The notes under the pieces are model-generated. The model was not told where the DNA came from. It searched no databases and worked only from the letters and a program-made list of their open reading frames with translations. From Promethearchaeota archaeon (lineage in GTDB: Archaea > Asgardarchaeota > Lokiarchaeia > Sigyniarchaeales > SOKP01): 64,000 nt of DNA. The stretch covers positions 1 to 64,000 of the forward strand of contig JBHLNZ010000006.1 in assembly GCA_048941015.1 (NCBI GenBank), written 5' to 3'. Shown here in pieces: positions 1 through 27,000 of the stretch (positions are counted from its first letter, which is position 1; the number at the start of each line of letters is the position of its first letter). The position numbers and the translations under genes are program-made.

Positions 1-1140
1 GGAGTCCTTGGTCCAGGAAGTGGTTTTTCAGCAACAATAGGAGGAGGTCTTTCAAATAGTACAGCGGGTTTTGGATCGACCAAGTATGGAGTTGTTCCAG
101 ATATATGTTTAGGAGTTGAAGTTGTCTTACCTAATCCTCAAGGGACTATAATTAGAACTGGTGCTGCTGCTAATAAGTATGCAAAACCCTTCTGTAGGTA
201 TGGAGTGGCACCAGATTTTACAGGATTATTTATGGGAGATGTCGGAACAATGGGTATTAAAACAAAAGCATTTTTAAAGTTGTTTCCAGAAACTCCTTAT
301 AAAGCACAGAGATATTATATGCTTCATAAAAATGATTATAATAAAGTTGTAGAATTAATGTATAAGCTTCAAAGTGAAGTTAAGGATGGATTACATGATG
401 TAATTGTTGTTCCTCTTGCTTTACTGCAAATTTTATCTATGATGGTTGAAAACAAACCTCAGAAAAGACCGAGATTAAAAGGTCCCGTGTTTTCAATTTT
501 GGTAGAGGCAATGGATGAGAGAATTTTAGAAATTTATCTTGAAAAAGTTACCCATATTATGGAAAATGACTCAAGACCATTTGAATACCAAGAAATGGAT
601 TTAGATGCCCCACTCGCTAAAGATTGGAAGTTTAATTTGAAATATGCCTATAATTATTTTAATAAGTATATCTCAATAGTCCCTCCTAAGATTTCGTGTA
701 CAACATGTCATAAAATTCCAATTTCAGCAATTCCTGAAACTGCTGAAGCTAGTGCTGCTTTTGATAACCGACATAAAGCGGAATTTCCCTCTCAAAGCAT
801 TTCATTATATGCAACGGTTATATTTCAATTGCCTAATGGACATTGTGTAATTGTTGGAGGATTTAATGCAGATAATGTTGAGGAAGAACGTCAAATCTCT
901 ATGAATATGTGGCATAAAAAATTAAGGAATCAAATTCGGTATGGGGGAGTACATTATTGGCTTGGAGAATCTATTTCCCAATCAATTGTAGAAGCTGATG
1001 CCTATACTCCCGAATTTGTACAGTTTTTTAAAGATATCAAGAAAGCTGTAGATCCTAATTACTTATTAAGCCCTAATAAATTTCACTTATATAATTATGA
1101 ACATGACTATACACAACATATAATAAAAGAAGAAGATTAA
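1..1140 (+). CDS. FAD-binding oxidoreductase (GlcD/D-2-hydroxyacid dehydrogenase/VAO-type), 5'-truncated by the window edge
   Basis: Frame 1 is open from base 1 (GVLGPGSGFSATIGGGLSNSTAG...). It is collinear with the full-length paralog at 1989-3524 and ends in the DPNYLLSPNK motif typical of FAD-oxidase C-terminal domains. Confidence 0.88.
   Translation, partial: GVLGPGSGFSATIGGGLSNSTAGFGSTKYGVVPDICLGVEVVLPNPQGTIIRTGAAANKYAKPFCRYGVAPDFTGLFMGDVGTMGIKTKAFLKLFPETPYKAQRYYMLHKNDYNKVVELMYKLQSEVKDGLHDVIVVPLALLQILSMMVENKPQKRPRLKGPVFSILVEAMDERILEIYLEKVTHIMENDSRPFEYQEMDLDAPLAKDWKFNLKYAYNYFNKYISIVPPKISCTTCHKIPISAIPETAEASAAFDNRHKAEFPSQSISLYATVIFQLPNGHCVIVGGFNADNVEEERQISMNMWHKKLRNQIRYGGVHYWLGESISQSIVEADAYTPEFVQFFKDIKKAVDPNYLLSPNKFHLYNYEHDYTQHIIKEED
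199..272 (+). repeat. 74-bp exact repeat, copy 1 (copy 2 at 2577-2650)
   Basis: Nucleotide-identical tract within two otherwise diverged paralogs. Confidence 0.85.
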
Positions 1141-9766: not shown

Positions 9767-10519
9767 ATGATTATTCACTCGCTTTTTATTCTGCAGAAAA
9801 CTGGAGTATGTATTTATTCCCGAAATTTTACAAAAAATTTTGATAATATCGAGGCAAATTTAATAACTCCATTCTTTTCAGCTATCTTTTCTTTCTCTGA
9901 AAATGTTATATCGAAACAGACTCCGGAAGTTTTGGAGATGGGTGGCTTCAGATTCGTATTCAAAACTTACAATTCCTATATTTTTACTATCTTATCAGAT
10001 TCAAGTACCAGTTTGTTATTTGTAAATTCTCGTCTTGAGAGACTAACTGAAATTTTTAATGAATTCTTAGATGAAAACGAGATTGATGAATGTGAACAAA
10101 TTCAAAATAGACAATTTGATAAAATAATTGATTCAGTAATCACTGGAGAAGAGGATATTGTCTTAAGTCAACCACTCTATCGAAAAATAATTGATTTAAT
10201 TAATAATTTAGTTTTTGAAAACGAGATATTGGGCGCGGCATTAATGAATATTAATGGTAAGGTAATTTATTCTTCACTTCCTCATGAGATCCTCTTATCA
10301 TCATTAAAGGAATTAGAAATTCGATATACAGTTTCAAGAGAGTTTAGTACTACTTTCTATAGTCTAGAAAATGAGCAAAAAGTATTTTCAAAAATAGTAA
10401 AAATTCCATGGAAATTGGATCCTTTATTATTCGTTGTTTTATTTGATTCTACGGTTCCATTTGGGATGGCAGAAATAAATCTTGATAAATTTTCAAAAAA
10501 AATTGAAAATATAATATAA
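9767..10519 (+). CDS. Longin-like plus roadblock/profilin-like two-domain protein
   Basis: The N-terminus IHSLFILQKTGVCIYSR...LITPFFSAIFSF fits longin beta-beta-alpha. The second domain ILGAALMNINGKVIYSSL fits a roadblock/profilin hairpin. Confidence 0.65.
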   Translation: MIIHSLFILQKTGVCIYSRNFTKNFDNIEANLITPFFSAIFSFSENVISKQTPEVLEMGGFRFVFKTYNSYIFTILSDSSTSLLFVNSRLERLTEIFNEFLDENEIDECEQIQNRQFDKIIDSVITGEEDIVLSQPLYRKIIDLINNLVFENEILGAALMNINGKVIYSSLPHEILLSSLKELEIRYTVSREFSTTFYSLENEQKVFSKIVKIPWKLDPLLFVVLFDSTVPFGMAEINLDKFSKKIENII

Positions 10520-12034: not shown

Positions 12035-12529
12035 ATGGCGACTGAATATGCTATCTTAGCAAAATTAGGGGGACATGTTGGTTCTAATCCTGAAATAATA
12101 AGTTCTTTTCCTTCAATAGCAACAATAGGAGAAGAAACAGAGATTCTTAACAAATGTTTCCCTCTTGGATCTAAAGTGGGAGATTTTATAGAAGATAGGT
12201 TTTATAAACATCTTGTTCTCTCTTATATTTTCAAAGTCCGACGAGAAATGAATAGAGATGATTTATTTTCATTGTCTGTTCTTTTACATAAACGCGATAA
12301 AATTGATATATACAAACCTGTTTTAAAAGAACTTATTGATATATTAGACAGAAATAACTTATTGAATGAGACTATATTGAATCAATATCATGATACTATC
12401 TATGAAGGAATGAATCAGGAAAAGGACGTATATATCAAGGATCTACTAGTTGATTTTTCAAGAATTTTTAAAGAGATTAAAGCTAAAATATTTAAGCAAA
12501 AACCAGAATTAAAAGGAAGTTTTTTCTGA
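12035..12529 (+). CDS. Stand-alone uDENN/longin-like domain protein
   Basis: PEIISSFP-x12-ILNKCFPLG matches the uDENN P..L..yP...fCFP.G signature. It is followed by beta strands (LSYIFKV, FSLSVLL) and a helix. Confidence 0.6.
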   Translation: MATEYAILAKLGGHVGSNPEIISSFPSIATIGEETEILNKCFPLGSKVGDFIEDRFYKHLVLSYIFKVRREMNRDDLFSLSVLLHKRDKIDIYKPVLKELIDILDRNNLLNETILNQYHDTIYEGMNQEKDVYIKDLLVDFSRIFKEIKAKIFKQKPELKGSFF

Positions 12530-13173
12530 TGATAGAAAATATATTAGTCGAAAATTTAAGAGAGCTAGGATATCTACTTAGTGCTATTGTTATACCACTC
12601 GCTACCGTGATACTAGGAAGGAAAATGTTTAAAGAGAAAAAAATAGCAGGCAAATTTAATAATATTAGACTTATAACATTCGCAATTTTCACATGCTTTG
12701 CAATCATGAGTATATTAGAATATTTAGTACATTTATCTTTGTCACCCTTTTTAGATGAGATCTTTGGTTTCGAAATTGATAATGTAAATCTATATTCAAT
12801 ATTAATAGGAACAATGGTATCATTAGGCTTAACTCTAATTTTCTTTGCAAATCGATGGGAAGCATTTTATTACGTAGCATTATTTTTCTTTGGAGGGATG
12901 ATAATATTTTATTTTTTTACTGGATTTGATGCCTGGCTTGAGGTTTATATACAAATAGCGGCTATATGTAGCCTTATATTCATGTATCTTACAAGTTTTC
13001 GAGTAAAAGACAATGGAGCATTAGGTTTAGCTATTTTTTTTACTTTAGCATTTAGTGTATTAATAGTAAGTATTCCTTTAGTAACTCAAATATTAATCTT
13101 AGCATATGATATCTTCATCGTAATATTTTCTTTGGGATTTTTTAAAATATTCAAACAGGAGGTTTCTTACTAA
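12529..13173 (+). CDS. Seven-transmembrane protein of unknown function
   Basis: Seven hydrophobic segments of about 20 aa; 1-nt TGATG overlap with the upstream gene. Confidence 0.75.
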   Translation: MIENILVENLRELGYLLSAIVIPLATVILGRKMFKEKKIAGKFNNIRLITFAIFTCFAIMSILEYLVHLSLSPFLDEIFGFEIDNVNLYSILIGTMVSLGLTLIFFANRWEAFYYVALFFFGGMIIFYFFTGFDAWLEVYIQIAAICSLIFMYLTSFRVKDNGALGLAIFFTLAFSVLIVSIPLVTQILILAYDIFIVIFSLGFFKIFKQEVSY

Positions 13174-13174
13174 A

Positions 13175-13825
13175 ATGGTAGAATATGTATATTCAATATT
13201 AGAGATAATAATTGTTATTTTTGGAATACTTTCTCTAATCCCAGTTTTTGCGTCATGGAAAGATACTAAAAATAGAATGTACATTTCAATTTTTGTACTG
13301 ACCCTTGGACTTATAGCTTTTTCAATAATTAATTTGCTCACATATTTATTTGAAATTGACACTACAGTTTATCTTATTGGAGGATTACGGTTCGGTTACA
13401 TTTTAGGATATATATTAGCTACAATTCAATTTGAATTTATGCTTTACTTGAGGGATTTAAAGAAACTATACACTTTACCATTTATTATCGCATTTTATCT
13501 TATTATGGGAAATATATTAATCGTTTCCAGTGTAGCTTTCATACTATATCTCACATTTGTAGGTTATGTCCCAGCATATTTTCTTTTAAGAGATGGAAAA
13601 AGTAAACGAAATGGCTTAGCTTTTGGAACGGGATTACTTTTTTTAATATGGGGTATTGGTCAAACTATTCCACTATTGTTAATAACGATCATATTTCGAA
13701 CAGTCTCAGTTTTCTTTTTCTTTTTAGGATCCCGAGGATTCTATGAAAATTATATTTTCTTAGACCAACAAGAAGAGCAAAAGATTTTAGGAACATGGAT
13801 ATCCAAATTTGTAGTAAAGGAATAA
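13175..13825 (+). CDS. Seven-transmembrane protein, distant paralog of 12529-13173
   Basis: Seven hydrophobic segments. The TM5-6 junction is shared (KRNGLAFG vs KDNGALG), and the gene starts 1 nt after the previous stop. Confidence 0.75.
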   Translation: MVEYVYSILEIIIVIFGILSLIPVFASWKDTKNRMYISIFVLTLGLIAFSIINLLTYLFEIDTTVYLIGGLRFGYILGYILATIQFEFMLYLRDLKKLYTLPFIIAFYLIMGNILIVSSVAFILYLTFVGYVPAYFLLRDGKSKRNGLAFGTGLLFLIWGIGQTIPLLLITIIFRTVSVFFFFLGSRGFYENYIFLDQQEEQKILGTWISKFVVKE

Positions 13826-13870
13826 CTTGTAATTTCTTATATCTTTTTTTTATTTATTTTTCTATTTTTT
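13826..13870 (+). terminator. Oligo-T archaeal terminator-like tract
   Basis: cttttttttatttattttttctattttttt follows the second 7TM gene. Confidence 0.45.
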
Positions 13871-14046
13871 ATATCATTATTTAATATTCTTCACAATCAA
13901 CTTGTGTGTAAAAAAACGAGATTTTTCACATAATACGTTCGTTCAGTACAAAATCTAATAAAAAAAAAGTCATTTTTATTACATTTATTTTATATATGTT
14001 CTAAGTAAAAAATTCACTAGGATATTATTCTACAAATTGATATAAG

Positions 14047-14943
14047 ATGGGAGTAAAAAATATCTTAAAACGGGTTTTCACAAAGGATAAGAAGGTAGTT
14101 ATATGTGGCTTAGATTCTGCTGGAAAGACTACAATGGTTTCTTTCCTTCAGAATGGAACTTTTATTGAGCATACACCAACCATGGGTAAAGAAATGACAA
14201 AGATTGAAGTACAAGGAGTTCGTATAGACTTAATGGATTTGGGAGGTCAGAAAGACTTTAGAGATTTATGGATGGGAGAAGCTTCTCATGCAGAATGTGT
14301 AATTTTTATGATAGATGCTTATGCTCGAGAGAGATTTAATGAAGCTAAAGATGAATTATGGAAACTTTCTAATATTTTTAAGAAGAAGCCATTGATAGTA
14401 TTAGCAAATAAATACGATCTCCAACCTGTAGCTCAAATTAGTGAAATCATAGATGCTTTAGATCTTAAGAAATTACCTTCTTTCGAGATTATTCCAATAT
14501 CATGTAAAACTGGATTTGGTATTGTTAAGTCATTCATGAAAATCTATTACAAGTTAACTGGAAAGCAATTAACTAATAAGCTTAGCACAAAGGCAGTCAC
14601 TGTCTTCAATCAAGGAGGTATACCCCTAACATCTTCTTCTAATGAAGATATATTACAAGGTGGACTATTTGCAGCAATTAATAGTTTTGTAAAGGAATCA
14701 TTCAAATCTGATTTAGACCAATTAAAGATAGGTGATAATTTAATTATTTTTAAACGATCTAAAAATTTACTAGGTTCTATTGTAGTTAATTCAAGTGATT
14801 TAATCAACGTTGAGGATGCCGAAGAAGGTTTATATGAACTATTATGTCATTTAGAACATATGTGTCCTGAAATTGAAAGAGATCAATTGGATACTGAAAA
14901 GATTGACTACTTAGTTAAGCAATACGCTTCAAATCTATTATAA
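14047..14943 (+). CDS. Arf-family small GTPase with an N-terminal amphipathic helix and a C-terminal longin-like domain
   Basis: MGVKNILKRVF N-terminus; G1 GLDSAGKTT, PTMG, G3 DLGGQ, G4 NKYD, G5 SCK. The C-terminus reads AVTVFNQGGIPL...LQGGLFAAINSF. Confidence 0.9.
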   Translation: MGVKNILKRVFTKDKKVVICGLDSAGKTTMVSFLQNGTFIEHTPTMGKEMTKIEVQGVRIDLMDLGGQKDFRDLWMGEASHAECVIFMIDAYARERFNEAKDELWKLSNIFKKKPLIVLANKYDLQPVAQISEIIDALDLKKLPSFEIIPISCKTGFGIVKSFMKIYYKLTGKQLTNKLSTKAVTVFNQGGIPLTSSSNEDILQGGLFAAINSFVKESFKSDLDQLKIGDNLIIFKRSKNLLGSIVVNSSDLINVEDAEEGLYELLCHLEHMCPEIERDQLDTEKIDYLVKQYASNLL

Positions 14944-15003: not shown

Positions 15004-18000
15004 TTATATTGGAATTATTATATCGAATAGAAAGTCAAATAGCACTTTTGAAAGCATGTCTATAATCAATTTTTCCACTACCTTTTTAATTACTTGTTTC
15101 ACTGCCTCTTTAATCGCTTGAGCAGCGATATTAGATGGACCACCACCATAAATACTTATTACAACATTTACACCTATTATCAGAGAATATTTAAGAGCCA
15201 ATCTCGCTATATCAATAAGGAAAGCCAAAAATGGGTCATCCGGTTTAGGGATCAGGTCGAATATAAGGTCGATCACAAAACCGATTAGAGCATCAGATAT
15301 TATAAATATTATATATGATGCTATTGGAAGAACACTTATAAGCTTTTCATGATACTCCTTATATTTATGAAATGTATCCCATATACGTTTTCCAAGATAT
15401 ATTAAACCTCTGCGAAGAGGTTCTAAAATCGATGGAAGATTATGAAATATAAATTCGATAAGTCCTGCAATAAAAAGAATTAGTAACTCAATTAATATTA
15501 CTTCAACATTAAGATCTATGTCTAGCTTAAATTCCCTAAAATTAAACTGTATCAATATAAGATCTATAGCAATTAAAGAAATGGCAACGATAAACCAACT
15601 AGGAGATTTTAACGAATTAATTAATTTAGATACGGATAGAAGAAGCCAATAATCATCAACATCTTCTTCATACATTCTAAGAAATCCATATAAGAACCAT
15701 CTCGAATATTCAAAAAGTCCGCAAAATGCTGTGAAAAGTATAAGCTTTAAAAGATCCATCCATGTTAATCCAACATATTCTCCAATGTAACCTGAAAAGA
15801 TATTTAAAACTAATAGTAATAAGAAAGAGTAAATACCTGCCTTCCATTTTACAGCATATTCTAAAGCAAAATAAAGAACATCAGATATAATTGGAATATA
15901 AATATAAGGTACATAATCATCACTAACTAGTATATTCGCTACTTTAGTTAATAGAAATACATAAAGACTTTGATTAAAATAAGATGCTATCTCTTGAATA
16001 TTAAGTAGTTCCGCAATATCTTCGTCAGCAATAGAAACTCTGATCTCATAAAGACCGGCGTTCATAATAGCTATTTCTACTCTTCCACTGCTCATATATT
16101 GATCATGGGCAACTTGATTTGTTCTCATTTCTAGAAGTTGAATATAGAATTCAACATTGCGAACAACACGATTATCTTCATCATAGAGGCAAATTGTCGG
16201 TTTCATAACATAGTTCATATCTTCCATTGAAATTGCTCCTATGTTGATCCCAATATGACCAATTTCAAAAATACGTAATCTATCTTGATGTGAAACCTCG
16301 ATTGGTTGATAATAATCATTCATCTTGATTTTGAGACGTAATTGATAATTTCCTGCTTGAATTAATTTATTTGTCACATTTAATTTTACATTGATATAAA
16401 CCCATCCATTATTATCTGACTTATTCGAAATATCTAAATATCTGATTATATCTCTAAAATGATGTATATAATATCCAAAATCAACAATTTGATTTTTTAA
16501 ATTGGACCCATTGAGGTAATCTTGAATTCTTGCAACAATTGTGATTATTTCACCTCTATGTCCAGAATGCTTTACATCAGGTCTATTTGGATTATTATGC
16601 CAGTAATCAATAAAAGTTAAGTTCAAGGGTCTCCTGAGTATTTTTGCAATCCTCCTTGAATTTGAAGGTGCAAAAAATCGTGCTCCCTGATAGGTTACTG
16701 TGCTTGTTTCAAAACCATATTTAGTTGGTGTGTAATAGATTGAATAATTTCCATCTTCCAAGGTAACATTAGCAGTACCATATGTGTTTTTTCCATTCAC
16801 TATTTGATAGTAAATAGTTCGATTAGTCACTATCATTGATCCATCCTTGATGTTGCATGAATAGGGTAAAGGATCGCCATCTTCATCGCGTAGAATAAAT
16901 TCAATTTGTTCTTCTTCCCAAAGATAATGTCTACCACTAGCATTTGGATTCAAAAAATGGTATTTAATTTCCAAAGTTGTCCTCTCAATAAAATCTATTA
17001 AGAATGAAGTACTTCCAGTAAAACTTGACCACTCTTCATCAATTACTACGGTAAATTTATGTTGTCCAGCTTGGAATGTATCATCAACTGGAATATTATA
17101 AGCAATAACTCCAGTTCCATTCTCAATAAAGAAATACTTTCCCCTAAATATATCGTCATGTTTGATTCCATCTCCATTTAAGTCGATATCGACAAATATA
17201 TTAATAGGAATGTCTTCTCTTTTTGCTTCTTCCAATCCTGTTTCTACAGTGAATTTAAATATATCTCCTCGCATTATACGGGGTAAGTTTATCTTTGTAA
17301 TGGATAAATCTGCCGGGACTCTTTCTATAATAAATCTTATTTCACTTTGAGAGGATAAGTATCCATTATTATATACATCATCGTCGAATAAAGGTAAGTA
17401 TAACGCTTTAATAATGAAAGTACCTGGAACTGTTATATTTAATGAAAAAGTAGCATTTCCATAAAGATTATCCGTAATTACATGTGTATTAGGCCTTAAT
17501 AGATTTGTAATTCCCCCCTCTTTATAGCATTCAATCAGAACTTTTTGACCAGTTATTGGTGTTCCTTCCTTGTCCAATAAAAATAGATCAATCTCATAGG
17601 GATCAATAACATTACCCTTCTCAGGTCCTTGAATAAGTAAGAGAGTTGTGTGTTGAAAAACTTGCAATCCATATTTGACCATATTTGATGTGGAATCATA
17701 AATTAGGTTTTGCATTCCATCAAAAAATACAAAGATATCAAATTTACCTAAATATGGAAATTCTTCTGGTTGAACTTTTAATGTCGCAGTACCATTTGAA
17801 TTAGTTTCAGCTTTACCATTATATAAAATTTCCTCTGGGCTCTTTGAACTATTGATGATATAAAAATTTAATGCAGCTCCTTGGATTGGATTTAATTGAC
17901 TATCAGTTAAAGTCGCATTAATTTGAAATTCAGTATGAAATAGGGTTTCTGTTCCTTGAATTGAGATTATAGGAATATCTTTAGAGATTATTAAATTAGC

Positions 18001-21000
18001 AGTATCACTACTTTCTTTATAGAAGTCATTTCCACTAGTATTGACATTCAGTATGTAATTTCCGGGAATCAGATTACTAATAAGAGAAGGATTGAAATTA
18101 ATGCTTGCAAGACCATTAGGATCTGTTAATGACGATCCAATTGGATATTTTGTGCCACTAGGGAATAGAATTGCTTCAAAAGTTACCATTATATCTTCAA
18201 TTCCATTGTTTGTATCATCTTCTAATAAATTAGCTACAAGTGAAGTATTATAATAATACGGGCAGTGAATATCAGAACCCATTCCAGTTTGGATGGAAAG
18301 GGCAACATCCTGTAGAGTGATATTTAACTTACCTTTAAATATAGAGACATTATCAGCATAAATTGATTTTCCATCGTAGGATACAATAATATCGTACTCT
18401 CCTGGGGCATAATCACATGGAAATAATAACTTTGCTTCTCCATTTGTATCTGTGGATGCCATACCAAGATAGTAATTATTCTCAGAGTTAGAGATGTTAA
18501 AATAGAGGGTCTGATTCGATAAGCGTTTTTCATCTGCCAAAAGAACAGCGCTAATATTTCCAATTTCATTGTATGGTATATTATTACTTACATAAACTAA
18601 TTGGATGTTCATATATTTGCCTTTATTTTTGAATAATTTCATTTCTTCTATTGGTTGGTATATATTATTTCCTTGAAAAGTCACGTTGAAAATATGTTGT
18701 CCTTTAGCTACGGAAACATTGTAATTAAATGTCGCATAACCATTGATATCAGTAACTGTAGTTCCTAAGGTTTGAGGGTTATCTCTGTCCCCCATTTCAA
18801 AGGTTAAGACTTGTCCAGGGATAGGTGTTTTTGGCTCAATTTCTATAAGTTCATCTGATTCAGAGAGATATTTATCATTTTCAACTAATCGTGCTTTAAC
18901 GTTAATCAAATGATTCGAATAAATATTATCATCTTCCATAATATCAATTTCCAGTTTTACAGATTCTTTCAAAACCTGTAAATTTAACTCCTTTGTTTCT
19001 TTAACAACAATTCCTAGCACATTTAACATAAGTATTGTTATCAAGATTATATAATCTGAAGCTTTAAAGAATAAAGGATCTATTAAAATCTCTAAAGTAT
19101 TCATTTTTTCTGTTGTTATAGAATCTGACATTTTGATTATAGTTTTATAGTTGAGATCTAATATTTTGAGATTGTACGTTCCATTAGCTATGGAAGTAAA
19201 ACTTATATTGATATAATCGGTAAGTTCTGCCTTCACATTTTCATATTCTGTTGGATCAACATCATATATTGGATTATTGACTATTCTTATCTCGACAGAT
19301 GCTGTATTGTTGTTATTATTATTGTCAATTGCTAAAGCATATATCACATATTCACCATCGACATAATCAGTTGTGCTCAAATTATAAATATAAAGATCAG
19401 AAATTGGGTCATAGTAGAAAAAATCTTCTTTCACTAAGGTTATTCCTTGATATAACAACTTAAACAAGACCTCGTGAACACCTGATTCTCTATCAAAAAC
19501 TCCTAGTTTAATTGTCGTTTTTTCCCTTAAAATATCACCATTTGATATCTCAGAAAACCATAATCTAGGAGGATTCATATCCAATTCAGGAGGAATAATC
19601 GTAGAATTTTCTAACACTAAGTCATATGATTCCGTGTCGTTCTCAAGGTTAGGAATCCATTCAGGGTTAATTTTTTCTAATGTTGAGCCCCCATAATCAT
19701 ACAAATCATTCATAGTATCTTGATTCTGTGTTAAAGGATCTTCTGGATAATAATTACTTATTGCTTTTAGATCCTTAATCAATCCTGTTCTTTCTGTTTG
19801 AGAACATATAAGCGCGATTCCGGAATATGATGAAAATAAAATCGTTATAACTAAGAATATTACTAAAAAGATCTTCTTTCTTCTTTTCCCTTTTGAAGTT
19901 TTAATCTTAAAATTAAATGAAGGGGTGATCATCAATGCAGGAACTAGTATGATAAAGAAAGTTTCCCAGAATGACAAACTAAAAGTGAATATACTTTGTG
20001 CTTTAAAATTAACTTTACATCCAAGATAATCATCGGTTCCCTTATAAGTAGCTTTAATAATATACTCATCATATTCTGGGAAAATCCAATCGAAAGTGTT
20101 ATTATCTCCAATGATAAGGTCAAGATAGAAATATTCAGTTGATCCTGATTCATCGTGACATATAATTTGTATTGCTACAAGTTCTCCTATCAACAAACCT
20201 CCTGTTGAGTTAAATAGAATTACATTTATGCTATATAACTCTCCAGGCCTAATATACTCAGGTAAATTTGTTTGAATATTAGTTGGTTCTTTTTCTACGC
20301 ATTTATGTTCTTCTGTCAATTGGCTTTCTTTGTATTCTTCTGTACCTGCGAAATATACTTTTATAATGTAATTACCAAGTTTAGTAGGGGTGAAATTGAA
20401 GAATGTGGTATCATTTGTAACAATTTCATAAGATTGAGTAATTTTTCCTTTAAAATAAATATCAACTGAGAGATTATACCCTTTCAATGCGATTAAAAAC
20501 TCGTCGTATAATGTGATATTTATGTCATAATTAATGTCAATTCGAAATTTGCTAGTAAATAATTCTAATTCTAATGATGTTTTGATTTTTCTGAGGTTGA
20601 AGTAAATTGGATTACTTTCTGCAGCATAATTATATTCTGTTTCATCAATTTTCGCTAATATCGCGGTATTCTTCCACCAGTTTGTTGTTGTGTAATTAGA
20701 AGTGTCCCAGTTAAAAATCGCTATACCTTCTTTATTAGTAATATTTGAGCCGATTAGAATTGGTTCTTTATTCTTTTGGAGAAAAAAGAAAGATACTTCA
20801 GCATCTTCATAAGGTATATCATAATCTTTAATCGTTACATTTGCAACTAATGTAAGATTGTTATTAAAATCTAAAATGCTATAATTCAAATACGTTCCTA
20901 AGAAATCAGTAGATTCAACAACGGAAAAGGCTTCAAGAATAGAAAGATCAATCTCAAGTTCAAATTTCTCAGAATAAATTTCTGTTTCATTACTACTTGG

Positions 21001-24000
21001 ATAGTATCTATCAGTTCCTTCATATGAACCAATTATTTCAAATGCTCCATAATTTGGGATTAGAAATTCATAACTGTTATTAAATCCAATTTCAATTTTA
21101 AAAGATGTCAAAAACAAAGGATTTTCTATTTTAACATTAATAATTTGTCCTAAGAGTTCCCTTTCATAAATGTCGATCAAATCAAAATGAATAATAACTA
21201 GTTCACCAGGAAGAACCTGAAATTTTTCGGGAATTATTGAAATAGAGGTTTGTAATTTATCTATGCTTATTTCTTTAGTTAAGATAAACCCTCCATAATA
21301 TTGATCATCATCAATTACATAAATCTCAAATATTGCATTGTTAAATTCAAAGATATCCCTGTAGGGCGTCCAACTAAACTCTATAACTCCAAAATTATCT
21401 GTAAATCCATCTTTAATTATAATACGTGTTCCGTTAGGTAATAAGAGGGACAGTTGGATATGACAGTTTGAAGCTACATCAGATGGAATAATTAACTTAA
21501 AGACTTCAATGATAAATTGTTCTTCTAGGAATGGTGATAAACTATCAGGAAATTCAACTAAGTTCAATTCAACATTATATTTTGAAATAAAAGTTGAGAT
21601 TTTTGGAGTTGAACAATTATTATAATAGTCTGCATAGTCATAAACAGCAGAAATATTGACTTCTTGACCGATAAATTTAGGTTCAATATCCCATATACAT
21701 GAGATTAATCCCTCATTATCAGTGATTCCTTCATAGATTAAATATTTAGAAGTGCTGTTAGTAATGAAAAATTTTACTATCTCATCTTTAATTGGCATGC
21801 CTGTTAAATTATTTTCTAATCTTGCTCTTAAAAATAGATGTTCATCTGAGTAAAGAATTTCGGGAATTTTTTCCGTAAATTCTAGAGAAGTTGGAATTGG
21901 AGATACTCCGTAATAAATTTGGGTATAAGTTGGTAAATAGAGACTAGATCCACTGTAACTAGCATTTATTCTATATAATCCTAACTCTGTAAAGTTGAAT
22001 TGAATTGTTTGATTACAAGAAATTTGTAGAGTCAAGTAATTAGTTGGAGTCTCGATCTCTAAATATAACGTTTCTGTAATTAATAGATTATCAAAATAAT
22101 CATATAGCTCAAATGTTATATTCAAGTTTTCGTCAATATAATATTGATAGGAATCTGTTAATGCGGCAAAATCAATATAGGTAGGTGATTCGGTTATAAG
22201 AAGTTCTACACTATTACTGGCACCTTCATTTAAAGTGGTTTGATTAGTTTCAGCAATGAAAATTATAGAACTCTCTGCATAGGCTTCTGGTAAACTTACT
22301 AAGAAATTAACTTTTCCATCTAAATCAGTAGTTAATGAGTTAAGAAAGATCTTAGTAGAAGTAGTGAAATCAATATAAAACAATTTTACTAAACTACCAC
22401 TGATGGACTGTTGATTAAATGTGTCTATTAATTGGTATATGAGATTGATTGTATCTTCTTCAGGATAAATATATTCTGGATAATCTATTAGGTTTAACTT
22501 ACTAGGATATAGCTCTATAAAATAAACTATTTCTTTTTCCGTTGGAGCATAGAGCTCTGAACCAAGATAATAAAATTTGTAGATATATTTACCAGCCTCT
22601 GAAAATGATTTAGTCAGTAATGATGTCTCACTTAAATTAATAACCGAACTTTCATAATATGATAGATCTTCACATGTTATTTCATATGTAATCTCATCTT
22701 CGACTTTTTCTCCTCTAGTAGTTAAAAATTCTATTTCAATAATAATATCCTCATTTATATAGCTATGGGGATTAGGTGTGATTATGATATTGAAATAAGT
22801 TTTAAGCGGAGCAGTTGTAATCTTAATTTCATTAAAATATGATTGGTAATAGTTAGATTCTTCAGTGATTATTAAAATCGTTAAATTTTTGTTAATTAAA
22901 CTTGAGGGAATCTGCCATTCAAATTCTATTATCCCCTCTTCATTAGTAGTGTGGTTTTGAGAGTAAATAATGTTTTCTCCATCAAGGATAAGATAATGGA
23001 CTAGCAAACCAGGTATCGGATCAGAATTTGTAGTATTTAAATCAGTGAAAGTGGTATTAAACCGAACGAATTCATCGATTTTATAATCAAAGTTTTGAAT
23101 AGAAGGTTCAATCAAAACTTGGCGTTTTGATACATTTAATATTAAAGAATAGTATGAATCTTGATAGATATCATCATTTGATACAAAATGAAAAACAAAT
23201 TCAAAATCTGCTTCTCTTAATGGTTTCCAGGAAAAAGTATTGGTTAATGGTATTAAGACATCAAAAAGAAATTTATCTTCTACTAAACTTCCATTATCAT
23301 ATATGTTTTCAAAAACTGAAATCCATTTATTTTGAATCGATTCATTTGTAAATGCATCAAATAGATTTACTGTAATTGAAAAATTATTACCCGGAACTAA
23401 ATCCATTTCCGTTACATCTATAGAGAAATAGGTGGGGCGTTTTAAGATTTCTATTGTATAATAATCATGACATTCTAAATAGAGACTGGATCCATAATAA
23501 TCTATTTCTATATAATAAAGCCCTGCTGTTAGAAATTTTAAATTTAAAGAACTATTGTAAGAAGTAATAACCTCGAACTGCTCATAATACGTCTCATTAG
23601 ATATTGTGATTATTAATTGTGCATTTTCGATAAGCTTTTGAAGATCATCATTTAAAAGTTCAAAATTAAAAGTATAATTCTCATTTACATATAAATCAGT
23701 CTTATCTACACTAAATATAATGCGGGTATATAAAGGTCTAATGGTTATTGAAGAAACATTAGTTTTTCGCTGCAAACAGAAACCAAGCTTAGGAGAATTA
23801 TAAGCATAATATTTCACGGTTTTAGAAGCCCAATTCTCAGGGATATCAAATATAAATGTAGCTAATCCTTCTGAATTAGTAATTCCTGAAAGAAATTCCA
23901 TAAATTCACCAGTTTGGTTGGTACATAGAAAAATATTGAGCCCTTCAATGGGCATATTCGTTGAAAGATCTTTTGCTAAAATGGTTATAGCTACTTCCTG

Positions 24001-27000
24001 ATTTATATAATAAATACTCTCTGACGGAGAAATCTCTTTAATTGATAATTTTAATCGTGTAACATTAAAAACAATCGCTGTTTCACTACTTTCAAACAAA
24101 TCTGAGACATTAAACCTGCAACGAATTAGATGTTCTCCAGGCGTTGAAAAACTAATCAAAATTGGTGTTGAAGAATTATAAACTCCTATTGGAATAAAAT
24201 TATCAGAAATGCTAATTGATTCAAAATAGATTTCAAAACCAGTGTTTTCATTGATAAGTCTAGAGTAAATATAAAGATTTTGATTAACAATTACATCAAA
24301 ACCTTCTGGAGCTAAAGAAAGTAATTCTATGCTTGTAGGAGTTAAATCAATATGCAGAGAATACATTTCTGATTTTTTTTCAGCCCAGATATCGAAATAA
24401 AATGGTTCATCCCTAAATGGTTCAGATAACTGTCCATAATTTTCTTCTACTTTAGCAAAAATGAAGTAGTCCCCCTGAAATAGATTTGTTACTGTTATAG
24501 AAGCTATCCCATGCGCATCTGTTAAAGATGTACCTAGCAAAGTAATATTTCCATAATAATCTGAATAGAAGTTAACTTTTGCTCTAATTGCTGGAGCTCC
24601 AGTAAAGAGATCTGTAACATTTGCGACGATATCTAAATTATCTGTAGTATATGCTTGAGTTGCCAAGCTAAGATTTAAATCCACAGGGCGTCTTTTAACC
24701 TCAATGGTAAAATTCCCATTAACACTTTTATAGGTTGGATTTTCTATAACTTCAAAGAAAATCGTATAGTTTCCAGGGCACGTTGGACTATAAGTATATG
24801 TACTATCTGAATTAATCATTTTTGTATTATTATAATATATTATTTTCGGTGTTTCTTCCCACCACACTACATCAAAACCAATATAATCTAACCATGTCCC
24901 TATAACTGCGTTCGATTCAAAATTTGAGAGATATGAATTTTGTGCATCTTTTAAATACCCTTCAAAATAACTGAAAAATCGGAATGTAATCACATTATTA
25001 GGATCTACATATTGCGACAAATTATCAGCAGTAAAATCAAAACTATAATCTGGAATGTTTAATAAATTCAATGGATTATTTGGATTCCCTAATTCAAAGG
25101 TCTCTTCGAAAAGATAATCTAAATAAGTAATATAACTATCTGTTTTATAGTTATAGACTTCTATTCTCCCAAATGACTCAATTATGTTGTTTATATTTAT
25201 ATAGGCTGATTCAAGAAAATGTGCCCCAAATAATGTAGCATTAATATATGATATATCTTTTAATTCCAAATCATAAAGACTAAACAGATAATCTAAATCT
25301 AATTGAAAATAGATTTCGATTTTCTGACGAGAGTAATCTGTATTTGGGTCATATTCTAAAATCTCAGGAGCAACTATCAAGCTAGCGTTCGGATACAATG
25401 TAGAATTTAATAAATATATATCTTTTAGTGTTGCTAATGGTATTCCGGTTTCATTATGAAATACTATTCCTGAATAGTTAGTAAAGGAAGTAAAATGTGT
25501 TCTAACCCAACTATGAGCATCCCAATATGCCTTTTCTTCAATAATATCCAATGGTAAATTTACTTCCTTTCCAAAGAAATTGTCCAGTGTAAGTGCGATA
25601 CTAAAATCAACATCATCCCCCATATAACATTCTATGAAATTAGGAATGATCTCCATAGTAAGTTCGAGCTTATCTGAAAATATTGGATAATGATCTATTG
25701 TTTCTGCTGTTCCAGAAATAGTATATGGATCATCTCCGATTCCATCATCGTCTAAATCCTCTCCAATATAATCATCATAAGAATTACCTATGGTTCCATT
25801 ATCCCATTGATTATTTGATTGAACTGGTATTGATGTATAGTATGAGATCTCAATATAATCTATATTCATCCAGATAATAGTAAGTACAGGTTCCCAGCAG
25901 TACATATATAGCGCCATCCATTCAATATAACCCCCTTGTAGAACTCTATCATATACAGGACCAGAAGTTATAGTCCAGACATTATCATAATAATACGCAT
26001 TCACAGGAGTAGAAGCGACTGTAATAGACTGATAATCACCATTGTCAGCAACTACAAAGAGGGTGAGATCACTTGCTTGATCTAATACGTTTGGTAACCA
26101 ACCCCCTTCTGTCATCACTCGATAATCAATTTCAATCTTTGACAAATATTGGTGAGTAATGCTGTCAAAATTATCATAATTTCCCCAATCTATATGAAGC
26201 CAATCGGGAGGTATATAATATGGATAATCTGCCTCTAAGAATAGATTATAATTATCTTTACTACTTAGAGCATTATCTATTAATGATGCATCAGCAACAA
26301 CTCTTGGAAAAGCTGTTCCCCATAAAAGTCCTCGGAAATCCAATATTTGATAGGCGTAATTTTTATGATATGAGATTGGAACTAAATCGTAGCTATTATC
26401 CTCAGCATTTAATCCGTTTCCTATGAATTCATTATCATGAATAAGGTTGAAATTAGAATATCCTTCAATAATTAAACCATTCTCATTTGAAGTAATACTA
26501 TTATTCTTTATAGTATTATTATTACATCTATGTTCAAGGTAAATTCCATAAACATTTTCGAATATTATATTATCAAATATATTGTTATGTTCTCCACCAT
26601 AAGACCTAATACCATAACCATTAGTGATTATCTGATTGTAATAGATATCATTATATTCTGATTCGGAAATATCTATAGCAAATTTCGATCGTTTTATAAT
26701 ATTACCAGAGATGTCATTACCATCTGAGTGACTGATAATGATTCCATTTGCGTTATCATTTAAGTTATTATGCCAAACATAATGATATCCACCAGGCGAT
26801 TCCAAACTTATTCCAAAATGGGTACTTCCACTTATATTATTTCCAGATATTGTGTTATATTCGCCCCAGATAGTTCTTATTCCATTATAACTTTGTTTAA
26901 TCTCGTTGCCCATAACCATATTATTATAATTATTACCATGTACCAAGATACCTACGTAATTAGAATTTAATTTATTGTTTAATATTTCATTCTCATGTCC

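Follow-up and report, generated by a model that had tools for sequence, protein, structure and literature searches.

Conserved linkage of an Arf-family GTPase gene with genes for an NPRL2-like longin protein and two seven-helix membrane proteins in Asgard archaea: a candidate small-GTPase switch

Four neighboring genes on the plus strand of the window (the whole 64,000-nt stretch of Promethearchaeota archaeon DNA that was analyzed) encode a longin-domain protein (P1), two seven-helix (7TM) membrane proteins (TM-A and TM-B), and an Arf-family GTPase (Table 1). We lean, at slightly better than even confidence, towards reading the four as one membrane-bound small-GTPase switch, in which P1 would be the regulator, probably a GTPase-activating protein (GAP), and the 7TM pair the membrane partner.

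Table 1 Features of the four-gene module in the window
Feature	Positions	Strand	Description
P1	12035..12529	+	164-aa soluble longin-domain protein, NPRL2/FLCN/SMCR8 'GAP-longin' type
TM-A	12529..13173	+	214-aa membrane protein, seven hydrophobic segments, predicted N-out/C-in
TM-B	13175..13825	+	216-aa seven-helix membrane protein, distant TM-A paralog, GPCR-like predicted architecture
Spacer, TM-B to GTPase gene	13826..14046	+	221 nt, T-rich
GTPase gene	14047..14943	+	298 aa, Arf-family G domain plus C-terminal domain
GTPase G domain (residues 1-170)	14047..14556	+	Arf family
GTPase C-terminal domain (about residues 178-298)	14578..14943	+	Probably longin-like

The four open reading frames (ORFs) described in the sequence-only reading are all present, as are its two tight junctions: the P1 stop and the TM-A start overlap in a TGATG (12527 to 12531), and one base (13174) lies between TM-A and TM-B in a TAA-a-ATG junction. 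The motifs it listed (PEIISSFP, NKCFPLG, GLDSAGKTT, DLGGQ, and NKYD) were all found in the translations. Homologous clusters were recovered for P1 (66), TM-A (120), and TM-B (29), throughout from Asgard MAGs, and because of these clusters and the conserved synteny the four genes are real rather than chance ORFs. In the spacer before the GTPase gene, the TM-B stop is directly followed by T runs, and about 50 nt upstream of the GTPase ATG stands a TATA-like TTTATATA. A spacer of 60 to 267 nt occupies this place in 17 of 17 loci with the order P1, TM-A, TM-B, GTPase (P1-A-B-G). In that order the spacer probably combines a terminator with a promoter of its own for the GTPase gene, and separate transcription of this gene is probable in the window.

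Synteny of the four genes, which had been put forward as a check on their association, is kept in other genomes. All P1 loci from the same taxonomic order with a long enough flank carried P1, TM-A, TM-B, and a GTPase of 298 to 314 aa with an Arf domain and the C-terminal domain. Three arrangements occur (P1-A-B-G, G-P1-A-B, and divergent), whole-module duplicates were seen in tandem or divergent form, and median intergenic gaps are 0 nt from P1 to TM-A, -1 nt from TM-A to TM-B, and 14 nt from the GTPase gene to P1. P1 and TM-B co-occur, in copy numbers that agree, in 38 of the 135 family genomes; the four genes are present or absent jointly, and the module-free genomes include 100%-complete ones. 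The module is accessory and behaves as one block in gain, loss, and duplication. P1 is single copy in the genome under study, and the cultured Ca. Lokiarchaeum ossiferum carries the module. An incomplete literature search found no printed description of it.

That the genes are neighbors with no common function, held in synteny by descent only while their proteins act independently, is highly improbable in our view. The T-rich spacer does set the GTPase gene apart in the window, and Asgard GTPases generally lie outside longin operons (Tran et al., PMC10933270), but the linkage persists across three gene orders, the module is duplicated in blocks, and close relatives have either all of it or none. 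In another class the linkage recurs, there with different 7TM proteins, and a fusion of P1 with the C-terminal domain of the GTPase exists: in another genome, P1 (residues 6 to 149) and this domain (182 to 298) form one natural 275-aa ORF.

The GTPase had been read as an Arf-type protein fused to a longin-like domain. Its G domain is indeed an intact Arf-type GTPase; the fused domain is probably longin-like, on weak evidence. The protein matches Pfam Arf (PF00025) with an E value of 2.2e-33 and 115.6 bits (cut-off, 22.3), its other Pfam matches being Ras (46.9 bits) and Gtr1_RagA (27.3 bits, just above cut-off and far under Arf). All 29 orthologs match Pfam Arf (best E value, 3e-42), and G-alpha Pfam matches to the GTPase and its orthologs fell below threshold. 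The P-loop GLDSAGKTT, Thr45, DLGGQ with Gln68, NKYD, and SCKTG are all present, with key residues invariant in 29 sequences. The closest solved relatives are 8oun, 8oum, and 8oul, whose titles read simply 'GTP-binding protein' or 'Arf GTPase', followed by eukaryotic Arf/Arl, and the module GTPases form one clade in a quick tree. At the N-terminus, Gly2 is followed by a stretch with amphipathic periodicity (residues 2 to 13, muH 0.59; ortholog median, 0.57), a value matched by 10% of shuffles and not significant alone.

For the C-terminal domain, hhalign recovered the longin-like N-terminus of a 250-aa protein encoded at 9767 to 10519 (74%; E value, 2.7e-5) and gave no signal against the P1 family. 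The domain alone has no Pfam match; weak matches to Fuz_longin_1 appeared in 2 of 29 GTPase orthologs, and weak matches to MAPKK1_Int, which is roadblock-type, likewise in 2 of 29. Its PDB sequence matches were set aside as merely a chance armadillo-repeat word.

P1 can be assigned confidently, from its predicted fold, to the longin domains. The AF2 model (pLDDT 89, pTM 0.85) has the element order beta-beta-alpha-beta-beta-beta-alpha and comprises a single longin domain and some short helices. The best Foldseek matches were NPRL2/Npr2 chains (E value, 1e-4; TMq, 0.52 to 0.63), and NPRL2/Npr2 is the subunit that supplies the arginine finger in the GATOR1 GAP. VIA gave Z scores of 12.8 (8fw5_B, 154 of 164 residues aligned) and 12.4 (8adl_S) against the NPRL2/Npr2 N-terminal longin, 9.1 against 6nzd_H, a chain of the FLCN-FNIP2 complex, and 8.7 to 9.2 against DENND1A and DENND10, of which the uDENN part alone aligns. 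The suggestion that P1 is uDENN-like therefore stands insofar as its longin-class fold also resembles uDENN, but the higher NPRL2 score speaks against a DENN protein. We rejected a DENN-domain GEF as an identity for P1, which at 164 aa is without the DENN/dDENN core and has no DENN Pfam match. A DUF835 label on the L. ossiferum homolog in UniRef was not reproduced by Pfam, and P1 profiles searched against PDB sequences reached nothing relevant, NPRL2 included.

Three residues (R74, P43, and G45) are invariant in 32 of 32 P1 family members from three Asgard groups, Lokiarchaeial and Heimdallarchaeial included. Arg74 sits in the beta4-beta5 loop of the AF2 model, and it may correspond to NPRL2 Arg78, judging from the ranges aligned by VIA (2..164 of P1 and 6..173 of the NPRL2 chain) and the human sequence rather than from a residue-level superposition. 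The invariance of Arg74 points to a GAP more than to a GEF. GAP activity would have the opposite sign to GPCR-style activation. The C-terminal tail of P1 is also conserved (K-P-x-L-K-G-S-F-F). GAP-type longins are marked by a GP motif just before beta2, and Asgard longins with a GAP-type arginine and this motif have been reported, together with the question of which GTPase is their client (PMC12290439). At this site Lokiarchaeial P1 has N-P, not strict G-P, within an S-N-P-E motif (17 to 20) whose N18 and P19 are at least 90% conserved; among distant members a few (L068) have G-P and others G-L.

A GPCR-like scheme, of the kind raised in the sequence-only reading, would make P1 an exchange factor instead: a TM-A/TM-B heterodimer would sense a ligand and P1 would charge the Arf-like protein with GTP, giving a receptor-GEF-G protein chain. 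DENN, Mon1-Ccz1, and TRAPP longin platforms are the precedents named for such a factor. We think this scheme rather unlikely. It is consistent with the conserved four-gene linkage, with the resemblance of P1 to the DENND1A/DENND10 uDENN, and with the observation that longin platforms are mostly GEFs (PMC12290439), but P1 is nearer the GAP-type NPRL2 longin, probably has its invariant arginine where GAP longins hold the finger, and is without a DENN core domain.

The membrane proteins bear on the same question. As had been proposed, both have seven hydrophobic helices, by hydropathy (about seven segments in TM-A) and, for TM-B, in the AF2 model (seven TM helices; pLDDT 83.8). Lysines and arginines number 12 inside versus 1 outside in TM-A and 14 versus 1 in TM-B, and in both the N-terminus is predicted to be outside and the C-terminus inside. 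Their proposed paralogy was invisible to BLASTP (E value, 0.53) and to narrow profiles and was borne out with broader profiles by hhalign (97.6%; E value, 1.5e-11), reversed and block-shuffled controls staying far below; by this comparison TM-A and TM-B are distant paralogs. The cytoplasmic face of the pair is conserved significantly above the outer face (in TM-A, 3.17 bits for inner loops versus 2.32 bits for outer loops, p = 4.5e-5). TM-A keeps a basic cluster in ICL1, N-R-W-E after TM3, and R-x-K-D-N-G before TM6; the two proteins have a common motif in the loop before TM6, and the 30-residue cytoplasmic tail of TM-B is conserved. The outer loops, short and of low conservation, show no evident ligand site of the classical extracellular kind.

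Neither protein matched a Pfam family, GPCR families such as 7tm_1/2/3 and Frizzled included, or an NCBIfam family, and the known transporter or enzyme that would have spoken against the receptor idea did not appear in Pfam, NCBIfam, or 1.84 billion representatives. Against the latter the TM-B profile gave only 88 matches, all of 40 to 343 aa. Seven sampled members, longer ones included, had no significant Pfam family, and no Pfam domain was found in the extension of the longer variants (about 300 to 340 aa). The Atlas model of TM-A had no neighbor above TM 0.5, and that of TM-B had bacterial kinase/SpoIIE 7TM sensor modules and class B/F GPCRs as neighbors (TM 0.59 to 0.70). In VIA, TM-B reached Z scores of 13.4 to 9.3, on a scale where a helical-bundle Z under about 13 may be merely a common arrangement; 47 of the 50 listed rows were GPCRs or designed GPCR-like folds, with about 183 residues aligned at 3.4 to 4.5 Å. 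ACER3 (Z 10.5) and Ost-alpha (Z 9.3), both 7TM proteins but not receptors, were also listed. GPCRs made up all 50 Foldseek matches listed, which were weak (E values of at least 0.025). These scores point to shared architecture, not homology, between the TM-B model and GPCRs.

For the GPCR-like scheme, the architecture and orientation of TM-B are favorable, as is the common motif before TM6, the region that GPCRs use for G-protein coupling; the absence of a Pfam 7tm match, the short and variable outer loops, and the below-threshold G-alpha matches weigh on the other side. Alternatively, TM-A/TM-B may be a target rather than a sensor, namely a transporter, channel, lipid-handling, or other membrane machine whose activity, assembly, or localization the Arf-like GTPase and the longin control. 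This we consider unlikely, if worth keeping in view. It would fit the conserved linkage, the concentration of conservation in the helices and at the cytoplasmic side rather than at an outer ligand site, the ACER3 and Ost-alpha rows, and the normal work of Arf GTPases on membranes, where they recruit effectors (PMC11914678), but no transporter or enzyme family was matched, and the structural neighbors are overwhelmingly receptor-type 7TM modules, bacterial kinase sensor modules among them.

Distant P1 homologs in Heimdallarchaeia, probably the longin class of PMC12290439, adjoin true Arf genes, with a gene for a roughly 7TM protein next; Heimdallarchaeia carry a simpler longin-Arf-7TM cassette. 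Their longin-linked Arfs form one clade in the quick tree, which does not settle a sister relation to the Lokiarchaeial ones. Between the Heimdallarchaeial 7TM family and TM-A/TM-B hhalign stayed below 2%, and we claim no homology.

In the switch that we favor, the 298-aa Arf-family GTPase, with its catalytic set intact in the sequence, would be the switching element. P1 would be its dedicated regulator, the fold and the one invariant arginine suggesting that Arg74 is most likely an arginine finger and P1 a GAP, and may dock by pairing with the longin-like C-terminal domain of the GTPase, on the model of NPRL2-NPRL3 and FLCN-FNIP. TM-A and TM-B would form a probable heterodimer whose conserved cytoplasmic loops and tails face the soluble pair. 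The 7TM proteins may merely anchor P1 and the GTPase, or they may gate the access of P1 to the GTPase on a membrane or lumenal cue, like LYCHOS/GPR155 for GATOR1. Counted for this switch were the linkage, the P1 fold with Arg74, the Heimdallarchaeia cassette, the P1 fusion, the paralogy, topology, and architecture of the 7TM pair, and the LYCHOS precedent. Counted against it were N-P in place of the GP motif, the lack of a sequence link to NPRL2, the mostly GEF nature of longin/DENN platforms, the weak longin assignment of the C-terminal domain, a TM-B Z score in the range of common helical bundles, the TM-A Atlas model without neighbors, the short and poorly conserved outer loops, the probably separate transcription of the GTPase gene, and the dissimilarity of the Heimdallarchaeial 7TM proteins.

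It is doubtful that TM-A/TM-B are a genuine 7TM receptor, gated by a ligand or lipid, with direct control of the nucleotide state of the GTPase via the longin regulator. If they were, this would be an archaeal receptor/G-protein system with parts found later in eukaryotic Rag-GATOR1-LYCHOS nutrient sensing, and it might foreshadow GPCR/G-protein coupling. Arf is the nearest relative of G-alpha.

GATOR1 (NPRL2-NPRL3-DEPDC5) and its yeast counterpart SEACIT act on Rag/Gtr GTPases, and the lysosomal protein LYCHOS/GPR155, with its GPCR-like domain, binds GATOR1 (PMC11525196; 10.1101/2024.11.21.624772). The module is similar in that the P1 model resembles the NPRL2 N-terminal longin and has an invariant arginine in what is probably the corresponding loop, the C-terminal domain of the GTPase would be of an alpha/beta dimerization type, as in Rags, and a GPCR-like 7TM protein is linked to a putative GAP. 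Unlike GATOR1, however, P1 stands alone, without NPRL3, DEPDC5, or the NPRL2 C-terminal domain, and no homology to NPRL2 was detected at the sequence level. The GTPase is of the Arf family rather than a Rag, its C-terminal domain gives weak signals to longin and roadblock-type families alike but looks more like a longin, and the 7TM proteins, at about 215 aa, have no transporter or DEP domain. C9orf72-SMCR8-WDR41, FLCN-FNIP, and the Asgard FLCN/SMCR8-type longins (PMC12290439) share with P1 a longin, a conserved arginine, and a proline motif before beta2, and C9orf72-SMCR8 acts on Arf GTPases. The FLCN/SMCR8-type longins have G-P where Lokiarchaeial P1 has N-P, and the module is without DENN domains; the partner GTPase was not identified for the Asgard longins, whereas adjacency in the module suggests one. 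Asgard ArfR (10.1101/2024.02.28.582541) and AArf (PMC11914678) likewise have an Arf-family G domain and a helix-like N-terminal segment after Gly2, but the module GTPase adds a C-terminal domain of roughly 120 aa and forms its own clade. Neither operons nor gene neighbors came up in text searches of the ArfR and AArf papers.

The module names a candidate regulator and candidate membrane partners for archaeal Arf GTPases, whose native regulators, GAPs and GEFs, are stated to be unknown in Asgard archaea (10.1101/2024.02.28.582541; PMC11914678), and it touches on the client asked about for GAP-like longins (PMC12290439). For the MK-D1 genome, gene order was found to be no help in pairing GTPases with regulators (PMC10933270); the module is a clear counter-example, in which one Arf-family GTPase is matched with one NPRL2-like longin and specific membrane proteins. 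The pairing is directly testable because the module occurs in a cultured organism, Ca. Lokiarchaeum ossiferum. Eukaryotes use an arrangement of longin GAP, small GTPase, and 7TM membrane partner at the lysosome, and if the pairing holds, this arrangement would be older than eukaryotes.

Two further systems resemble the module in layout. Actinobacterial conservons (CvnA-D), long compared to GPCR systems, are operons in which a membrane sensor is joined with a regulator of the roadblock/longin superfamily and a small GTPase of the Ras superfamily (PMC13343842, PMC13621833), but their sensor is histidine-kinase-like rather than a stand-alone 7TM pair, their regulators comprise a roadblock of the MglB type and a DUF742 GEF, and their GTPase is not Arf-family, so that no homology is implied. 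The Asgard operon of LAMTOR1-like, Rab-like GTPase, and DENN genes is likewise a conserved neighborhood of a small GTPase with longin/roadblock-type regulators, but with another GTPase family, other regulators, another gene set, and no membrane proteins (Liu et al., 10.1101/2020.10.19.343400). A text search of that preprint, which describes NPRL2-like longins as abundant, did not turn up the P1/TM-A/TM-B/GTPase module.

A 164-aa longin protein (P1), two 7TM membrane proteins (TM-A and TM-B) and a 298-aa Arf-family GTPase are encoded by four conserved, co-inherited genes, here termed the module. All four open reading frames (ORFs) were found in the window as the sequence-only reading had described them, together with the quoted motifs, the TGATG at 12527-12531 in which the stop of P1 overlaps the start of TM-A, and the single base between the TM-A stop and the TM-B start. 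A T-rich spacer of 221 nt precedes the GTPase gene, and the G+C content of the module region (26-32%) resembles that of its surroundings.

Module genes and flanking ORFs in the window
Feature	Position	Strand	Length
250-aa protein	9767-10519	+	250 aa
P1 gene	12035-12529	+	164 aa
TM-A gene	12529-13173	+	214 aa
TM-B gene	13175-13825	+	216 aa
GTPase gene	14047-14943	+	298 aa
Large downstream ORF	15004-28431	-	4475 aa

The neighborhood, for which synteny in other Asgard genomes had been proposed as a check, proved to be kept. All six loci reached via database homologs have the four genes, with differing flanks and two gene orders. A P1 profile search of 400 Asgard genomes recovered P1 in 74, and profile scans of 40 further loci for the module genes found the full set in every locus of the window's taxonomic order that had sufficient flank. 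Three arrangements were seen, P1-A-B-G, G-P1-A-B, and divergent (A, B, and G being the TM-A, TM-B, and GTPase genes). Median gaps were 0 nt for P1-A and -1 nt for A-B; separate transcription of the GTPase gene, as suggested earlier, is favored for the P1-A-B-G order, where the B-G gap was 60-267 nt in every case, but not for the module generally, given a median G-P1 gap of 14 nt. Among the 135 genomes of the window's family, P1 and TM-B occur together in 38 with matching copy numbers, one apparent mismatch being a contig end, and same-genus genomes without the module include several that are 100% complete. Ca. Lokiarchaeum ossiferum B-35 is among the matches, its P1 being NEF87_004542.

The module also duplicates as a whole block. 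Two full modules adjoin in loci L045 (genome G151, divergent) and L051 (genome G275, tandem), and genomes G248, G250, and G273 likewise have two copies each. Pairs of GTPase (with its C-terminal domain) and P1 that lack membrane genes of their own (L058:436-1840 and L059:2591-3984) share their contig with a complete module and lie next to it. In genome G276, an intact 275-aa ORF (L052:5647-6474, minus strand) runs from residues 6-149 of P1 directly into residues 182-298 of the GTPase, its C-terminal domain. Both membrane genes are missing there, as are the G domain and the tail of P1, and the ORF could be a natural fusion or what remains after a deletion.

Upstream of the module in the window, the 250-aa protein has sub-threshold Pfam matches to Clat_adaptor_s, Fuz_longin_1, and Sybindin in its N-terminal half (E 5e-4 to 9e-4). 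Its block (TrmB-thioredoxin-250aa-FAD oxidoreductase) lies upstream of the module in loci L001, L006, and L007 and is absent before it in L002, L004, and L005; this protein is a common neighbor of the module, outside its core. Directly downstream, the 4475-aa ORF has NosD/beta-helix-like repeats, as judged by eye, and is not kept beside the module elsewhere, its place often being taken by a TPR protein and an amidohydrolase.

P1, which had no significant Pfam or NCBIfam match, is modeled as a longin domain of the GAP type and has an invariant arginine. Its AF2 model, built from an alignment of 66 homologs (pLDDT 89, pTM 0.85), has the longin order of strands and helices, followed by additional helices and a small hairpin. 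Every one of the six significant Foldseek matches (E 1e-4 to 9e-4, TMq 0.52-0.59) is a chain from a GATOR1 or SEAC complex, and most recur as NPRL2/Npr2 in VIA-align, where the best Z values were 12.8 (8fw5_B, 154 residues) and 12.4 (8adl_S). Z was 10.2 for a Lokiarchaeial Roadblock-Longin protein, 9.2 for DENND10, 9.1 for one chain of the FLCN-FNIP2 complex, 8.7 for DENND1A, and 7-8 for generic longins. As modeled, the closest structural match of P1 is the GAP-type longin of NPRL2; the label "uDENN-like" caught the fold class, a longin, and missed on DENN identity, there being no DENN core.

P43, G45, and R74 are the sole invariant residues among 32 P1 family members from three Asgard groups; in the AF2 model, R74 sits in the loop that links strands 4 and 5. 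R74 is the putative equivalent of NPRL2 Arg78, as judged from aligned ranges and the human sequence rather than a residue-level superposition. P1 has S-N-P-E where a GP motif would be expected. Asgard longins that share the arginine finger and GP motif of NPRL2, FLCN, and SMCR8 have been described in work that raises the question of which GTPases the GAP-like Asgard longins serve (PMC12290439). A P1 variant in genomes G278 and G272 (L083:3776-4432, plus strand; L084:3998-4681, minus strand) has its first strands swapped for a zinc-ribbon-like N-terminus (CPICS...C.H) and A or K for the arginine, and retains the K-G-S-F-F tail. About 1.5 kb from it, on the other strand, is a 246-aa protein with approximately seven TM segments that the TM-A and TM-B profiles missed.

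The module has an intact Arf-type switch, as had been read from the motifs. Pfam Arf matched the GTPase at 115.6 bits, far over Ras, Roc, and Gtr1_RagA, and the G motifs, including Gln68, are all conserved in 29 orthologs. The nearest solved relatives are the Arf-family entries 8oun, 8oum, and 8oul, with eukaryotic Arf/Arl ranking behind. The C-terminal domain (approximately residues 178-298) had no family match when searched alone; it aligned to the 250-aa protein in its N-terminal part (hhalign 74%, E 2.7e-5), and the orthologs gave weak matches to Fuz_longin_1 (2 of 29) and MAPKK1_Int (2 of 29). Because these are weak ortholog matches and an alignment to a protein with sub-threshold longin-type matches, the longin half of the proposed fusion is probable, while its Arf G domain stands. 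A lone 150-aa paralog of the C-terminal domain (E 2e-10) occurs in genome G210 (L048:7827-8279, plus strand), directly after TM-B in a module with the GTPase gene first.

TM-A and TM-B, neither of which matched a Pfam or NCBIfam family, are 7TM paralogs whose cytoplasmic faces are conserved. Each has approximately seven hydrophobic segments, and an N-out, C-in topology is predicted because basic residues split 12:1 (TM-A) and 14:1 (TM-B) between alternate loops. Cytoplasmic loops and tail are more conserved than outer loops in both (TM-A, 3.17 versus 2.32 bits, p 4.5e-5; TM-B, 3.27 versus 2.30 bits, p 2e-7), a pattern that fits docking of a cytoplasmic partner better than an outer ligand site. 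BLASTP and narrow profiles left the two unrelated, but profiles widened to order-level relatives aligned colinearly over 199 columns (97.6%, E 1.5e-11), with 0.5% for a reversed control and scores of ≤39 in 12 block shuffles versus 68 for the real local alignment, which bears out the claimed paralogy as a distant one.

AF2 modeled TM-B (pLDDT 83.8) with seven TM helices; the first outer loop contains a short hairpin, and small helices occur in the tail. All 50 Foldseek matches listed were GPCRs, at E 0.025 or worse, and the ESM Atlas model matched bacterial 7TM sensor modules, from histidine kinases and SpoIIE phosphatases, at TM 0.59-0.70, with class B/F GPCRs also in this range. For designed "GPCR-like fold" proteins, VIA-align gave Z 13.4 and 12.8; adhesion and class C GPCRs came next, together with GPRC5D and GPR155/LYCHOS (12.3-11), and then Smoothened and Frizzled (superpositions of ~183 residues at 3.4-4.5 Å). 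Because such values may reflect no more than a common helical arrangement, we claim for modeled TM-B a receptor-like architecture and not GPCR homology. The Atlas model of TM-A had no neighbor with TM above 0.5. The TM-B family is small, with 88 representatives among 1.84 billion proteins. In one related family, TM-B orthologs are 321-358 aa long (L056:1779-2855, L057:4261-5226, and L062:2267-3232) and have a C-terminal cytoplasmic extension of ~100 aa with no Pfam match, and similar forms of 290-343 aa occur among the representatives.

We infer that P1 regulates the module GTPase, most likely as a GAP, and that it may pair with the C-terminal domain of the GTPase; a TM-A/TM-B heterodimer would anchor or gate this pair. 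Rag-GATOR1 together with LYCHOS, which is GPCR-like, offers the nearest working analogy, and the actinobacterial conservon the nearest bacterial one. The components belong to known kinds (Asgard Arf GTPases, NPRL2-like and GAP-type longins, and GTPase-longin fusions), and in a recent preprint, 7TM proteins are counted among the Asgard ESP families of earlier surveys and an Asgard family resembling class C GPCRs is described. The literature searched, with incomplete coverage, contained no description of a conserved linkage of Arf GTPase, longin, and 7TM genes.

In genomes labeled Heimdallarchaeota or Heimdallarchaeaceae, genes for distant homologs of P1 (E 1e-11 to 1e-19) directly adjoin Arf-family genes of 174-206 aa. 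Immediately after the Arf gene (0-6 nt away or overlapping it), 13 of 18 loci of this kind encode a 268-321-aa protein with approximately seven hydrophobic segments, whose family has no similarity to TM-A or TM-B at the profile level. The P1 tail also differs in these relatives. In the module, this conserved tail, ending G-S-F-F, might, speculatively, be a peptide that docks to the membrane proteins, in line with its different form in the Heimdall relatives and its absence from the 275-aa ORF of G276, where the membrane genes are missing. In a quick maximum-likelihood tree, which does not resolve whether the two are sisters, the module GTPases and the longin-linked Arfs of Heimdall genomes each form a clade of their own (SH-aLRT 99 each). 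In one Heimdall-labeled genome (G082), at least 6 of 15 Arf-family genes lie directly beside a P1-like longin (L070, L071, L098, L106, L114, and others), suggesting that the cassette has been duplicated repeatedly.
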